Virus record (IMG/VR): IMGVR_UViG_3300048091_000424
DNA from: a virus
Taxonomy: Duplodnaviria; Heunggongvirae; Uroviricota; Caudoviricetes
DNA: 64,000 nt
Direction: 5' to 3' (one strand)
Shown: positions 33,126-35,083 of the stretch, piece after piece
How positions within the stretch are numbered: position 1 is the stretch's first letter
Layout: each line of letters opens with the position of its first letter
The notes under the pieces: model-generated
What the model saw: the letters and a program-made list of their open reading frames with translations, nothing else
What the model was told of the DNA's origin: nothing
Database searches by the model: none
Made by a program: the position numbers and the translations under genes

Positions 33126-33154
33126 TTGACACCTTTTTTGGTGGCCAGTAGACT
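33126..33154 (+). promoter_or_regulatory. sigma70-like promoter for the tRNA-Asn/Leu/Leu operon
   Basis: TTGACA, a 17-nt spacer, then TAGACT, about 18 nt upstream of the tRNA 5' end. Confidence 0.4.
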
Positions 33155-33171
33155 TGATCTTGCAAGGCCAT

Positions 33172-33247
33172 TCCGTGATAGCTCAGTCGGTAGAGCATCG
33201 GACTGTTAATCCGAGTGTCCCTGGTTCGAGTCCAGGTCACGGAGCCA
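33172..33247 (+). tRNA. tRNA-Asn (GTT)
   Basis: Acceptor stem TCCGTGA/TCACGGA. Anticodon loop CTGTTAA. T-loop GGTTCGAGTCC. CCA encoded. Confidence 0.9.
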
Positions 33248-33259
33248 GCCTTACGCACT

Positions 33260-33346
33260 GCCCGAATGGCGAAACTGGTAGACGCATGGGACTTAAAATC
33301 CTCTGCTCGAAAGGGCGTCCCGGTTCGACTCCGGGTTCGGGCACCA
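33260..33346 (+). tRNA. tRNA-Leu (TAA), class II
   Basis: Acceptor GCCCGAA/TTCGGGC. Loop CTTAAAA. Long variable arm. Near-identical scaffold to E. coli Leu(UAA). Confidence 0.8.
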
Positions 33347-33356
33347 AGAATTCAAA

Positions 33357-33440
33357 GCCGAAGTGGTGGAATTGGTAGACGCGGCTGATTCAAAATCAGT
33401 TGCCTACGGCGTGCGGGTTCGAGTCCCGCCTTCGGCACCA
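33357..33440 (+). tRNA. tRNA-Leu (CAA), class II
   Basis: Acceptor GCCGAAG/CTTCGGC. Anticodon arm CTGA-TTCAAAA-TCAG. Confidence 0.9.
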
Positions 33441-33447
33441 AACAAGA

Positions 33448-33476
33448 AAGGCCCAGCATATGTCTGGGCCTTTTTC
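33448..33476 (+). terminator. rho-independent terminator after the tRNA operon
   Basis: aaggcccag-catatgt-ctgggcctt, then ttttt. Confidence 0.75.
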
Positions 33477-33741
33477 ATTTTACTGCGCCCTGGATGTCGT
33501 CATCATGAAACGCCTGTTTAGTCTGTTGTCCGAGCTTACGCGCCCTGCCCCACAACCAAACCTGGAAGGTCGCATCGAACCTACCGTGCCACGGCACATA
33601 GCAGCCTCACCCTTCGAAATGGCCTCAGATGAGCTGGCCAGAGATGGCGCCCGTCGCTTCAGCAATATCGATCAATTACGCGACAGAGTGAAGGGAACGC
33701 TTAGTCCCAATAATTAATTTCAAATATTTTTAAAATTGCTG

Positions 33742-33771
33742 TTGACAGTGTTTCAGGATTAGTTCTATCTT
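33742..33771 (+). promoter_or_regulatory. sigma70-like promoter upstream of sORF1, with an AT-rich UP-like tract
   Basis: TTGACA, a 17-18-nt spacer, then TATCTT. Confidence 0.4.
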
Positions 33772-33803
33772 AGCTACATCACTAGTTCAACCGAGTTTTT
33801 GAC

Positions 33804-33896
33804 ATGACCACTTTCACTCAACGCGATGATGCACGGCAGCAGGACGAACGTCCTGATATCTGCTCGCGTGATGAACGCTCTGTCAAAACTTTCTAG
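33804..33896 (+). CDS. sORF1: 30-aa highly charged peptide (MTTFTQRDDARQQDERPDICSRDERSVKTF)
   Basis: Not in the ORF track. Paralogous to sORF2, sharing the M(T/A)T(F/Y)T start, the gacgaacgtc (DER) core and a single Cys. A strong terminator follows. Confidence 0.35.
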   Translation: MTTFTQRDDARQQDERPDICSRDERSVKTF

Positions 33897-33937
33897 CATC
33901 TCAGATTTGAGGGCTAGACGCCCTCTTCTGCTAAAAC

Positions 33938-33970
33938 AGCCGGGGGCCCAAACCTCCGGCTTTTTGTTTT
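33938..33970 (+). terminator. rho-independent terminator after sORF1
   Basis: 8-bp GC-rich stem gccggggg/cctccggc, followed by tttttgtttt. Confidence 0.75.
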
Positions 33971-33983
33971 AAGGATTTCTATC

Positions 33984-34061
33984 ATGGCTACTTACACTAA
34001 CTTCGCTGACCGGACTGATCGTGACGAACGTCGCGATGAGCGCGAGTGCCTGACTGTCTAG
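33984..34061 (+). CDS. sORF2: 25-aa highly charged peptide (MATYTNFADRTDRDERRDERECLTV)
   Basis: SD AAGGA lies 8 nt upstream. Paralog of sORF1. Followed by a strong terminator. Confidence 0.4.
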   Translation: MATYTNFADRTDRDERRDERECLTV

Positions 34062-34097
34062 TGCCGTGATACGGGGCTAGAAGCCCCCAGACCGACG

Positions 34098-34128
34098 AAC
34101 CGGGGGCCATGGCTCCCGGTTTTTTTTG
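34098..34128 (+). terminator. rho-independent terminator after sORF2
   Basis: aaccggggg-ccatgg-ctcccggtt, followed by tttttttt. Confidence 0.75.
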
Positions 34129-34139
34129 AGTGTTATTTT

Positions 34140-34215
34140 GTCCCTCTCGTCTAATGGCTCAGGATATCTGGTTCTCAACCAGGTGATTGGGGTTCGAGTC
34201 CCCAGAGGGAAACCA
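34140..34215 (+). tRNA. tRNA-Glu-like (anticodon CTC) with a G1.A72 mismatch
   Basis: The scaffold GTCCCTCTCGTCTAATGGCTCAGGA...GGGGTTCGAGTCCCC is Glu-like. Anticodon loop TTCTCAA. 3' acceptor strand GAGGGAA pairs with 5' GTCCCTC except at 1:72. Confidence 0.5.
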
Positions 34216-34292
34216 ATTAGTGGTCATTGCCAGGTTAGAGGCGATGCCAGCAAGGAATAAAGCGCTCATTAAGGTGAGTGTCAAGTTTACAA

Positions 34293-34368
34293 GGCCCGTT
34301 AGCCAAGTTGGAAAGGTACGTGACTGTCTATCACGCATGCAGGGGTTCGAGCCCCCTACGGGTCGCCA
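34293..34368 (+). tRNA. atypical tRNA, anticodon GTC (Asp-like), class-II-like D-arm, copy 1
   Basis: Acceptor GGCCCGT/ACGGGTC. Anticodon arm CGTGA-CTGTCTA-TCACG (U at position 37). T-arm AGGGG-TTCGAGC-CCCCT. Confidence 0.5.
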
Positions 34369-34413
34369 CTTAGTTACACTTTTCGAAACTGAAAAGTGTG
34401 TTTTAAAAGTTAC

Positions 34414-34489
34414 GCTCCATTCGTCTAGCGGCCTAGGACGGAGGGTCTTCGCCCCTCTAACACCGGTTCGAATCCGGTATGGAGAACCA
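34414..34489 (+). tRNA. tRNA-Glu (TTC), copy 1 (G1.A72 mismatch)
   Basis: GCTCCATTCGTCTAGCGGCCTAGGACGGAGGG-TCTTCGC-CCCTC... Compensatory C2:G71 relative to copy 2, but 1:72 is G.A. Confidence 0.6.
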
Positions 34490-34529
34490 GTTATAGCTAC
34501 ACGTTTTATAAAGGTTTATAAGTTACAAA

Positions 34530-34604
34530 GGCCCGTTAGCCAAGTTGGAAAGGCATATGACTGTCTATCATACATCAGGGGTTCGAGCCCCCTACGGGTC
34601 GCCA
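34530..34604 (+). tRNA. atypical tRNA, anticodon GTC (Asp-like), copy 2
   Basis: Same as copy 1, with compensatory anticodon-stem changes (TATGA/TCATA versus CGTGA/TCACG). This argues the structure is under selection. Confidence 0.5.
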
Positions 34605-34652
34605 TTTAAGTTGCACTCTGATGCATTTCAAAGTGTTGGTTTTAATAGTTTT

Positions 34653-34728
34653 GTTCCATTCGTCTAGTGGCCTAGGACAGAGGGTCTTCACCCCTCAAAC
34701 GCCGGTTCGAGTCCGGTATGGAACTCCA
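34653..34728 (+). tRNA. tRNA-Glu (TTC), copy 2 (canonical)
   Basis: Acceptor GTTCCAT/ATGGAAC. Loop TCTTCAC. Perfect cloverleaf. Confidence 0.85.
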
Positions 34729-34812
34729 ATTTTGTTCGTTGTGTGGAGTAATTTCTGTGTCGGCAATCGAAACATAGACACAATTAAAGCTGTCACTTTG
34801 GACACAAAACAC

Positions 34813-34890
34813 GGTTTGTTAGCTCAGCTGGATATGAGCGCCGGCTTGTCACGCCGGAGGTCGCGGGTTCGAGCCCCGTACAAACCGCCA
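34813..34890 (+). tRNA. tRNA-Asp (GTC), canonical
   Basis: Acceptor GGTTTGT/ACAAACC. Anticodon arm CCGGC-TTGTCAC-GCCGG. Confidence 0.85.
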
Positions 34891-34896
34891 CTTACC

Positions 34897-34973
34897 GCTT
34901 CTGTAGCTCAACTGGATAGAGCAGCGCCCTACGAAGGCGAAGGTTAGAGGTTCGAGCCCTCTCAGAAGCACCA
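34897..34973 (+). tRNA. tRNA-Arg (ACG)
   Basis: Acceptor GCTTCTG/CAGAAGC. Loop CTACGAA. Scaffold like E. coli Arg(ACG). Confidence 0.85.
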
Positions 34974-35004
34974 TTTCAAACGCCTGGCTCACCCCAGACG
35001 ATCT

Positions 35005-35083
35005 ACCCCAGTCGCCAAACTGGATTAAGGCACCGGTCTTCGAAACCGGTCATGTGCAAGTTCGAATCTTGCCTGGGGTACCA
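35005..35083 (+). tRNA. tRNA-like, anticodon TCG (Arg-like), atypical D-arm
   Basis: Acceptor ACCCCAG/CTGGGGT. Anticodon arm CCGGT-CTTCGAA-ACCGG. T-arm GCAAG-TTCGAAT-CTTGC. The 7-nt 5' acceptor string is duplicated 7 nt upstream. Confidence 0.5.

Follow-up and report, generated by a model that had tools for sequence, protein, structure and literature searches.

Candidate tandem leader-peptide attenuators between a promoter-like site and an Asp/Glu/Arg tRNA array of a Pseudomonas megaplasmid

Introduction

Leader-peptide attenuators are well known from the biosynthesis operons of Gammaproteobacteria, among them trpL, hisL, leuL and pheL and the multivalent thrL and ilvL, and the pheM leader of Escherichia coli pheST places an aminoacyl-tRNA synthetase under attenuation control. 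For the supply of transfer RNA (tRNA) in bacteria, growth-rate control and stringent control of promoters are otherwise regarded as the main determinants. Here we describe a locus on a 64,000-nucleotide (nt) stretch of DNA, the IMG/VR record IMGVR_UViG_3300048091_000424 (hereafter the window, to whose positions all coordinates refer unless another replicon is named), in which a pair of small open reading frames (ORFs), each followed by an intrinsic terminator, lie between a promoter-like site and eight tRNA genes for Asp, Glu and Arg (D/E/R). Judged by their sequence, the two units are probably tandem ribosome-mediated transcription attenuators (leader peptides) of this plasmid tRNA operon, attenuator being used as defined by Elf & Ehrenberg (2005; PMC1183508). 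Most likely the mechanism is of a known kind, and what is new is its tRNA target and the sampling of codons for several amino acids by one leader.

Like the trp, his, thr, ilv and phe leaders, the locus combines a promoter and a short ORF containing regulatory codons with overlapping alternative helices and an intrinsic terminator, all upstream of the genes to be regulated. In those leaders, as here, the ribosome is expected to pick the fold by standing either at the stop codon or at the regulatory codons, and the peptide is free to change outside the regulatory codons. The his leader resembles the predicted terminated state of the units, which comprises three hairpins (a long hairpin, a small hairpin and the terminator). 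The targets of the classical leaders are biosynthesis or transport enzymes or a synthetase, which the targets here are not, being eight tRNA genes; and classical leaders act on amino-acid supply, whereas the loop proposed here would act on decoding capacity. The locus and its counterparts differ further in that each leader covers 3 to ~13 amino acids with codons near one-to-one with the anticodons of its array, that two attenuators stand in series, that the carriers are ~1-Mb megaplasmids, and that no similarity to the Rfam leader families was found.

Functionally, the pheST leader is nearest, since it controls a component of translation through cognate leader codons; its target, however, is a synthetase gene and its signal a single amino acid, whereas the targets here are tRNA genes and the amino acids several. 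In the mgtCBR leader of Salmonella, the ORFs mgtM and mgtP sense ATP and proline/charged tRNA-Pro (PMC3641672). As in our locus, two short ORFs stand there in series, each coupled to alternative stem-loops that set read-through; the mgtCBR leader controls a virulence and transport operon, whereas the two units described here would have one set of three amino acids as their common signal and act on tRNA genes.

T-box riboswitches work by direct binding of uncharged tRNA, independently of translation, and carry conserved specifier and T-box motifs. They resemble the units in being cis-acting leaders that report on a specific tRNA and choose between terminator and anti-terminator upstream of translation-related genes; they differ in that Rfam scans of the locus returned no match to the T-box model and in that conserved ORFs are present here. 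The tRNA cluster of phage T4 encodes the small stable RNAs species 1 and 2 (rnaC and rnaD), which, like the units, are two related structured RNAs of ~120-190 nt in the tRNA region of a mobile element. The T4 RNAs are not known to be translated or to be ended by a terminator ahead of tRNAs, and the conserved ORFs and cognate composition of the units argue instead for translation-coupled control.

The megaplasmids concerned carry 40-54 tRNA genes and have a GC content below that of their hosts (PMC6482414, PMC11556034). The paper on the pMPPla107/pBASL58 family counted 54 and 44 tRNA loci, suggested that they offset tRNA depletion or differences in codon usage, and discusses the tRNAs with no mention of a leader or of attenuation. 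Six tRNA-Glu genes are reported for pBASL58 (PMC6482414), for which a leader of the D/E type is accordingly predicted. Leader-peptide control of tRNA genes or arrays was not described anywhere in the full-text literature searched, our coverage of which was incomplete, so that novelty is unproven.

Results

Codon content of the two leader ORFs

The locus, all features of which lie on the plus strand, begins with a sigma-70-type promoter-like site (TTGACA-18 nt-TATCTT, 33742-33771). Unit 1 contains leader ORF 1 (33804-33896; 30 codons, MTTFTQRDDARQQDERPDICSRDERSVKTF) and terminator 1 (33938-33970), which is made of the arms E1 (33938-33947) and F1 (33953-33961) with a T-rich tract after them. 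Unit 2 starts with the Shine-Dalgarno (SD) sequence AAGGA (33971-33975), placed 8 nt ahead of the ATG and conserved in L012, L023 and L015 (L-numbers label the related sequences compared), and continues with leader ORF 2 (33984-34061; 25 codons, MATYTNFADRTDRDERRDERECLTV) and terminator 2 (34097-34127; arms E2, 34097-34108, and F2, 34111-34122, and a T8 tract), from which it is 12 nt to the first tRNA. The tRNA genes are Glu(CTC), Asp, Glu(TTC), Asp, Glu(TTC), Asp, Arg(ACG) and Arg(TCG) (34140-35083), so that 8/8 of the tRNAs 3' of terminator 2 are for Asp, Glu or Arg.

A consensus scan found no second promoter-like site between 33772 and 35530, and 33742-33771 is the sole promoter-like site upstream of the D/E/R array. 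Each ORF is thus separated from the first tRNA by one or both intrinsic terminators without an intervening promoter-like site, and between promoter and tRNAs stand short ORFs with a start codon and an SD (AAGGA for ORF 2, a weak GAG for ORF 1).

The two peptides are rich in the amino acids of the tRNAs behind them. Among the residues after Met, D/E/R account for 12/29 (41%) in ORF 1 and 12/24 (50%) in ORF 2, against a D+E+R background of 17.5% in the long ORFs of a related plasmid (binomial P 2e-3 and 3e-4, respectively). When the 6,759 small ORFs of a related plasmid were scored, just 0.6% and 0.09% equalled the D/E/R richness of ORF 1 and ORF 2, respectively. The match extends to codons: across five leader ORFs, Arg is encoded by CGN in 25/25 cases and the cognate array anticodons are ACG, TCG and GCG, while AGR makes up 19-22% of the Arg codons in long ORFs. 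ORF 2 contains GAG, and the first gene behind it is tRNA-Glu(CTC). Over-representation of cognate codons in the leader ORF holds in five other leader/array pairs too (see below).

Units 1 and 2 are paralogues with 75% mean column identity over ~200 aligned columns. Blocks common to both are GACGAACGT, CGnGATGAnCG, CTAG, GGGCTAGAnGCCC and CCGGGGGCC, and the window peptides share an N-terminal motif, a DER motif and a single Cys.

Much of this outline had been drawn in a sequence-only reading of the window. Its two ORFs of 30 and 25 amino acids (aa) are present exactly as quoted, and its AAGGA SD, its GC hairpins with T tracts (33938-33961 and 34097-34122) and the paralogy of the two units all hold. 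The promoter hexamers TTGACA and TATCTT were right and the spacer, given as 17 nt, measures 18 nt; the terminators, described as near-identical, have only a core in common. The units had been called embedded in the tRNA array, and they do lie among tRNAs, the exact position being between the sole promoter-like site and the D/E/R array, downstream of a separate Asn-Leu-Leu array. The decisive link, that the peptides are rich in exactly the amino acids of the eight following tRNAs, was absent from that reading.

Conservation of the units

Relatives were traced by means of a flanking 521-aa protein, the protein of ORF70 (a neighbouring ORF described below) and blastn. They include Pseudomonas silesiensis G3 pPL1 (1.17 Mb), Pseudomonas sp. 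PLMAX pPLMAXa (949 kb) and several metagenome contigs, and their versions of the 521-aa protein are 82, 63, 58, 58, 45 and 44% identical to that of the window. The D/E/R arrangement is conserved across four diverged lineages, and synteny is the same in all of them: Asn-Leu-Leu tRNAs, terminator, ORF70, TTGACA promoter, unit 1, unit 2 if present, and an array of D/E/R tRNAs only. All relatives have an unchanged TTGACA in the promoter and a -10 element of the form TAnnnT. The pPLMAXa lineage has unit 1 only, with a tRNA-Glu ~35 nt past the terminator.

Unit 1 reads MAIFNQRDDARQDVRPDTCSRDERPDICSRDERDS(A/T)TF in L012 and pPL1, with one codon deleted (-3 nt) and a 27-nt in-frame duplication; MTSFANHAEARDRDVRPDICTRDERSV in L015, where TAA comes three codons early; and MNAITFFTAAQDRDERPD(S/T)RARDERDMDSF in L017, L018 and pPLMAXa. 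Orthologues of unit 2 read MATYTFIA(N/D)REDRTDRDER(L/R)DERECLTV, with a 9-nt in-frame insertion, and MATYVIIVERTDRDERRDDRECLPI. None of the indels (-3, +27 and +9 nt) shifts the frame, and start codon, SD, stop region and D/E/R core are all retained. Ratios of nonsynonymous to synonymous differences (pN/pS) between pairs of orthologues are 0.66, 1.25, 0.75 and 0.96, the N- and C-terminal residues turn over between lineages, and the Cys is absent in L017, L018 and L022. A strain polymorphism in ORF 2 (33992 T>C) is synonymous; strains L003-L009 are nearly identical, with differences too few for a test of coding versus structure.

The frame and the regulatory codons are therefore conserved and the rest of the peptide is unconstrained. 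Since frame and D/E/R codons are kept while the peptide drifts, the selected features appear to be that the ORF is translated and that it contains D/E/R codons. A frame kept at pN/pS ~1 reads as the signature of a leader peptide, and not of a functional peptide or a purely non-coding RNA.

These data bear on what the sequence-only reading had made of the units. Its observation that the frame stays open extends to all lineages, in which indels are multiples of three, and the homologue search that it proposed, now run, found the units in other genomes with the frame unbroken. Its preference for a conserved peptide, with differences mostly at codon level, is at odds with the orthologue pN/pS of 0.66-1.25. 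A precursor of a ribosomally synthesized and post-translationally modified peptide (RiPP) or a small regulatory peptide, both of which it listed, fits poorly with pN/pS ~1, loss of the Cys in one lineage, and neighbours that are tRNAs and domainless proteins, with no modifying enzymes flanking the units. The cis-acting leader, the third possibility listed, is the only one that fits the evidence, as frame, start, SD and D/E/R codons are kept at 44-82% identity of the flanking protein. It had also allowed a function at the RNA level; this stands insofar as the stop region, small hairpin and terminator form a chain of alternative helices (see below), and falls insofar as a maintained frame argues against purely non-coding units.

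Other leader/array pairs on related megaplasmids

The entire pPL1 was scanned with ARAGORN, which called 41 tRNAs at five places. Two further pPL1 arrays carry the same module, consisting of a TTGACx promoter, an SD, a micro-ORF, a terminator and tRNAs. At 563.4 kb, the leader MSSISSLTSLTPSSPAD precedes Ser(GGA), Ser(GCT), Thr(CGT), Pro(TGG) and Ser(TGA), and the array continues with Leu(TAG), a tRNA with the anticodon CAT (Met or Ile2?), Thr(TGT) and Leu(GAG). At 645.5 kb, the leader MTAHINHQAKQMANNYFAKWCVRHV stands ahead of a Phe/Asn/Cys array composed of Phe, Asn, Asn, Cys, Tyr, Lys(TTT), Met, Tyr, Ala(TGC), Lys, Ala(GGC), Trp, Lys(CTT), Val, Gln(CTG), Lys, Gln(TTG) and His. Within its 24 residues after Met, MTAHINHQAKQMANNYFAKWCVRHV includes 11/11 amino acids of its array (P = 2e-4 for a random 24-mer), and such full coverage of 11 amino acids was seen in 10/6,759 small ORFs. 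It uses both Gln codons, both Lys codons and three Ala codons. Cognate enrichment of the two pPL1 leaders gave P values of 5e-6 and 1e-5, and scoring of leaders against all arrays showed 2.6-4.1-fold enrichment for true pairs and 0.14-1.3 for mismatched pairs.

Three more pairs were found on other replicons. On pMPPla107, the leader MNTLSLSSSMPTPSLMAS is followed by Ser, Ser, Thr, Pro, Leu, Ser, Ser, Thr, Pro, Leu, Gly, Met, Met and Arg; on pBASL58, MNAHHFNQQITKQAKNYFAGWCVSVR is followed by Tyr, Ile, Ala, Trp, Asn, Lys, Asn, Phe, Thr, Cys, Lys, Val, Gln/His repeats and Gly; and on a plasmid of Pseudomonas sp. FeN3W, MNAHNFHQYCICNQQAKINFAKWYVRVS is followed by Tyr, Phe, Trp, Asn, Cys, His, Tyr, Lys, Ile, Asn, Ala, Ile and more tRNAs. 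The cognate fractions of these leaders are 15/17 (pMPPla107), 23/25 (pBASL58) and 25/27 (FeN3W), and over the non-D/E/R leaders as a whole they range from 13/16 to 25/27 (P 1e-4 to 5e-6). When leaders of the Phe-Asn-Cys type were compared, an internal Met codon together with a tRNA-Met occurred in pPL1 only and a Gly codon together with tRNA-Gly(GCC) in pBASL58 only, while FeN3W has two Ile codons in the leader and two tRNA-Ile in the array. The micro-ORFs of the pPL1, pMPPla107, pBASL58 and FeN3W arrays are unrelated to the leaders of the window. pMPPla107 and pBASL58 are distantly linked to the family by tblastn, at 22-25% identity, and the 600-650-kb region of pMPPla107 contains one tRNA only.

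Two arrays lack a leader. In the window, tRNA-Asn, tRNA-Leu(TAA) and tRNA-Leu(CAA) (33172-33440) have a promoter-like site of their own upstream (33126-33154, from the consensus scan) and a bidirectional terminator (33445-33475), with no leader ORF within 33126-33475. The Arg(TCT)-Gly-Arg(CCT) array of pPL1 (~91.8 kb) has a promoter and no leader. Only some of the arrays therefore appear to be attenuated.

Some other features of the arrays were noted. Two of the three tRNA-Asp genes of the window (34293-34368 and 34530-34604) have the anticodon loop CUGUCUA, with U at position 37 in place of the usual purine, which could alter modification or nuclease recognition; the third (34813-34890) has the normal loop UUGUCAC. 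In the Ser/Thr/Pro...Leu array of pPL1, a His/Cys-rich frame (…HHIRHLRKGG…CHGCHVQIHAGKYDG…; 567072-567254, L035), reminiscent of an HNH-type or intron-encoded nuclease, lies between tRNA-Ser(TGA) and tRNA-Leu(TAG) at the end of a 2.5-kb gap, and tRNA-free gaps of 370-650 nt separate later tRNAs of the same array. The gap between tRNA-Met and tRNA-Tyr at 646708-647213 of pPL1 (L036) contains tRNA-like stretches (gtagctcagttggtagagcg…ggttcgag) that ARAGORN did not call and that may be degenerate or unusual tRNA genes.

Alternative helices around the stop codon and the terminator

Both units fold better than shuffled sequences (z -4.5 for unit 1 and -4.2 for unit 2), with 0/200 shuffles as good. 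Because the MAFFT alignments A3, A4 and A5 put the alternative helices out of register, folds of single sequences and duplex energies were used. In each unit we distinguish a long imperfect hairpin over the ORF, segment B in the stop-codon region, segments C and D, which are the arms of a small hairpin, and the terminator arms E and F. The long hairpin of unit 1 (33782-33896, fold prediction) covers the 5' untranslated region and the entire ORF 1. Its apex is CAGGACGAACGUCCUG at 33838-33853, the place of the inverted repeat caggacgaacgtcctg pointed out in the sequence-only reading; the hairpin is a possible pause hairpin or 'A:B' element.

In unit 1, segment B1 (UCUAGC-A-UCUCA, 33892-33903) overlaps the stop codon UAG (33894-33896) and has C1 (UGAGGGCUAGA, 33908-33918) as its partner. 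C1 can pair with either B1 or D1 (GCCCUC, 33920-33925), and D1 in turn can pair with C1, forming the small hairpin, or with GGGGGC in the 5' arm of the terminator (33942-33947), forming an anti-terminator. In unit 2, the corresponding segments are B2 (UCUAGUGCCG, 34057-34066), which overlaps the UAG at 34059-34061 and pairs with C2 (CGGGGCUAGA, 34072-34081), D2 (GCCCCC, 34083-34088) and the D-pairing part of E (GGGGGC, 34102-34107). The terminated state thus consists of C:D and E:F, and the alternative state of B:C and D:E.

Local pre-terminator folds were computed on transcripts cut just before F, with a 19-nt mask standing for a ribosome at the stop codon. With B free, the minimum-free-energy fold contains B:C and D:E. 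Once the stop codon is masked, nearly all units form C:D, with E unpaired or only weakly paired. The switch is cleanest in the three Phe-Asn-Cys-type leaders, the pMPPla107 leader and unit 1 of L015, and less clean in the others. The B1:C1 duplex has a predicted energy of -12.8 kcal/mol, matched by 0.4% of shuffled B sequences, and B2:C2 one of -14.8 kcal/mol, matched by 0/1000 shuffles; overall, B:C is better than with shuffled B in 10/10 units tested (z -2.9 to -4.4; fraction as good <=0.013).

B overlaps the stop codon in every family despite unrelated sequences, and the B/C helix is kept through changes on both strands: GUGUAGG/CCUACAC in pPL1, CGGUAGG/CCUACCG in pBASL58 and GCUAAGUA/UACUUAGC in FeN3W. 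Between the window paralogues, the difference in C (GAGGGC versus GGGGC) is matched in B (UCUCA versus GCCG) and in D (GCCCUC versus GCCCCC). In unit 1 of L015 the stop codon lies nine nt earlier, yet a downstream AUCUAGC still pairs with C. The tetranucleotide CTAG is four-fold under-represented in the window (69 observed versus 248 expected) and occurs about once per kb in these plasmids, and five copies fall within 33782-34077 (33782, 33893, 33914, 34058 and 34077), four of them inside B and C segments; the remaining copy (33782), which is close to the 5' end of unit 1's transcript, is not shared by L015 or L017.

The geometry is compatible with control by a ribosome. A ribosome whose A site holds the last regulatory codon (Arg25 in unit 1, Arg20 in unit 2) would cover ~13 nt downstream and leave B just exposed, and one at the stop codon would cover B. 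In silico, then, the helices exclude one another and are so placed that a ribosome could choose between them, depending on whether it stands on the stop codon or on the regulatory codons.

No Rfam family matches the units. An Rfam scan of the window gave gathering-score matches to tRNAs only, and a permissive search of 33440-34145 gave only terminator-like matches of <=22 bits, versus cut-offs of 35-80. None of the curated Rfam leader families (His_leader, Thr_leader, Leu_leader, Trp_leader, Phe_leader and others) nor T-box had a match near the gathering score.

Origin of the window and neighbouring genes

The window is identical to Joint Genome Institute (JGI) metagenome contigs and 99.5% identical to NZ_JAQIYM010000090.1, the plasmid unnamed1 (1,059,468 bp) of Pseudomonas serbica strain IT-P366. 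The idea of a jumbo phage was dropped, as this near-identical record is a Pseudomonas plasmid. Scans with Pfam, NCBIfam and PHROGs left most window proteins without a match. Neither a flanking 187-aa protein nor the ORF70 protein had relatives in IMG/VR, and in the phage collection only tRNA genes matched. A pattern search of IMG/VR for the small hairpin and terminator core returned two chance matches only, on GC-rich contigs without tRNAs.

In every lineage, ORF70 (33505-33717; 70 codons, plus strand) is flanked by the Asn-Leu-Leu terminator upstream and the leader promoter downstream. Its conserved product of 63-70 aa has the invariant motif EPT...SPFE.A...L...G..RF and no Pfam match, and it might be linked to the tRNA locus. 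The segment 18001-20000 has a GC content of 41.7%, against ~52-54% elsewhere in the window, and coincides with an 807-aa ORF (18344-20767) with a weak AAA_22 match, which may be a recent acquisition. Five tandem paralogous ORFs of ~373-400 aa without recognisable domains occupy 21513-27514; the run is also present in L012, L015, L017 and L018 and is kept in all related plasmids, with varying copy number. Within ~10 kb of the arrays in L015, L016, L017 and L018 there are genes with RNA_ligase (PF09414), PolyA_pol/CCA-adding-type (PF01743), ART-PolyVal (PF18760), DHFR and PgpA domains, which suggests a neighbourhood for tRNA maintenance and repair.

Discussion

We propose the following working of the D/E/R leader. 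Transcription would start from the promoter at 33742-33771 and would have to pass two intrinsic terminators before reaching the tRNA genes. Each leader RNA would present a short translated ORF full of GAU/GAC, GAA/GAG and CGN codons, and behind it a chain of helices in which B can pair with C, C with D, D with E, and E with F. When Asp-, Glu- and Arg-tRNAs are ample, the ribosome would keep pace with the polymerase and sit on the stop codon, hiding B; with B hidden, C:D and E:F would form and transcription would stop. When any such codon is slow to be read, the ribosome would stall upstream and leave B exposed, so that B:C would form and D would capture E; D:E would block the terminator, and the polymerase would continue into the tRNA genes. 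The extra Asp, Glu and Arg tRNA would relieve the signal, giving negative feedback on decoding capacity, and two attenuators in series would multiply or sharpen the effect. The model predicts that read-through rises, in a translation-dependent manner, when a charged cognate tRNA becomes limiting.

The case for attenuation is carried by the anatomy of the locus, the pattern of conservation, the match between leader and tRNAs in several independent pairs and the alternative helices, all of which are products of sequence analysis. Translation of the ORFs, the efficiency of termination, read-through, the choice of fold by the position of the ribosome, its kinetic nature and the sign of the response are what we infer from them. 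Several observations weigh against this interpretation. The SD of unit 1 is weak (GAG, 10 nt upstream). The leader MTAHINHQAKQMANNYFAKWCVRHV contains Thr, Ile and Arg residues that have no cognate tRNA in its pPL1 array, and the FeN3W array has a tRNA-Thr without a matching codon in its leader. The D/E/R leaders share descent, so that their CGN codon statistics are non-independent and the significance is overstated. In full-length equilibrium folds with a sliding mask, the terminator forms in most units at any ribosome position; the switch must therefore be kinetic, as in trp and his. D:E persists under the stop-codon mask in the pPL1 Ser/Thr/Pro leader and in unit 2 of L015, and in the D/E/R units it is no better than with shuffled D, as a run of C meets a run of G. 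Synonymous sites are strongly conserved at the nucleotide level (GACGAACGT, CGTGATGAACG) and a long hairpin spans the ORF; both point to RNA constraints outside the model, possibly those of a pause hairpin or of an A:B element through which transcription would end even when the leader is not translated.

The last of these points leaves some room for translated cis-regulators of a different logic. Control could have the opposite sign, with efficient translation opening the long hairpin and causing read-through; it could act through Rho or through RNA stability; or the units could be a constitutive 'dimmer' of tRNA output. The long hairpin, which encloses the SD/AUG and the ORF, has no place in our simple model, several units lack a clean ribosome-dependent switch at equilibrium, and without any ribosome local folding favours the anti-terminator, unlike the super-attenuation of trp and his. 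We nevertheless consider such logics unlikely. Enrichment for cognate codons, which match the array anticodons one by one, implies that it is those very tRNAs that are sensed; B lies on the stop codon, so that in every family a terminating ribosome would block the anti-terminator path; and B is left uncovered when the ribosome waits at the last regulatory codons.

Stable non-coding small RNAs released from a tRNA precursor, with incidental ORFs, would be analogous to species 1 and 2 of T4. The strong predicted structure, the conserved nucleotides at synonymous positions under a long hairpin, pN/pS ~1 and the presence of two paralogous copies within a tRNA region are all what such RNAs would show. 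Their ORFs, however, would not be expected to accept in-frame indels only and to keep start codon, SD and stop region in every lineage, and a non-coding RNA gives no reason why unrelated leaders should match their own downstream tRNAs. With two strong terminators between the sole promoter and the tRNAs and no Rfam family matched, we regard this explanation as very improbable. Hardly credible at all is a third one, that the units encode small peptides active in themselves (charged regulatory peptides, toxins or RiPP precursors), with terminators of their own and separately expressed tRNAs: it would suit the promoter, the SD of unit 2, the terminator, the calling of the 30-aa ORF by JGI gene callers, the single Cys and the shared N-terminal and DER motifs, but runs against a pN/pS of 0.66-1.25, termini replaced between lineages, a Cys lost in L017, L018 and L022, an orthologue truncated by an early stop (L015), neighbours that are tRNAs and hypothetical proteins with no adjacent modification, export or immunity genes, and the lack of a tRNA promoter downstream of the terminators, and it leaves unexplained why unrelated micro-ORFs spell the amino acids of other arrays.

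The attenuation interpretation can be extended beyond the window. We think it likely that tRNA arrays on ~1-Mb Pseudomonas megaplasmids of the pMPPla107 family and its relatives are governed by 'codon-sampler' leaders, which spell the codons of their own array and are coupled to a terminator, so that the plasmid would gauge decoding by its host and induce its tRNAs only when they are needed. The same principle may also operate upstream of tRNA arrays in other giant plasmids and in phages. As pMPPla107 is experimentally tractable, the idea is directly testable.

If the interpretation is correct, the leaders would form a new circuit, in which the speed of codon decoding feeds directly onto transcription of the matching tRNA genes. 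Leader composition would predict which tRNAs are co-regulated, a simple annotation rule for such arrays, and the leaders would be compact natural sensors for up to a dozen codons, with possible use as reporters of tRNA availability. For the megaplasmids themselves, such control would explain how they limit the cost of their tRNA genes and adapt to hosts with different tRNA pools.

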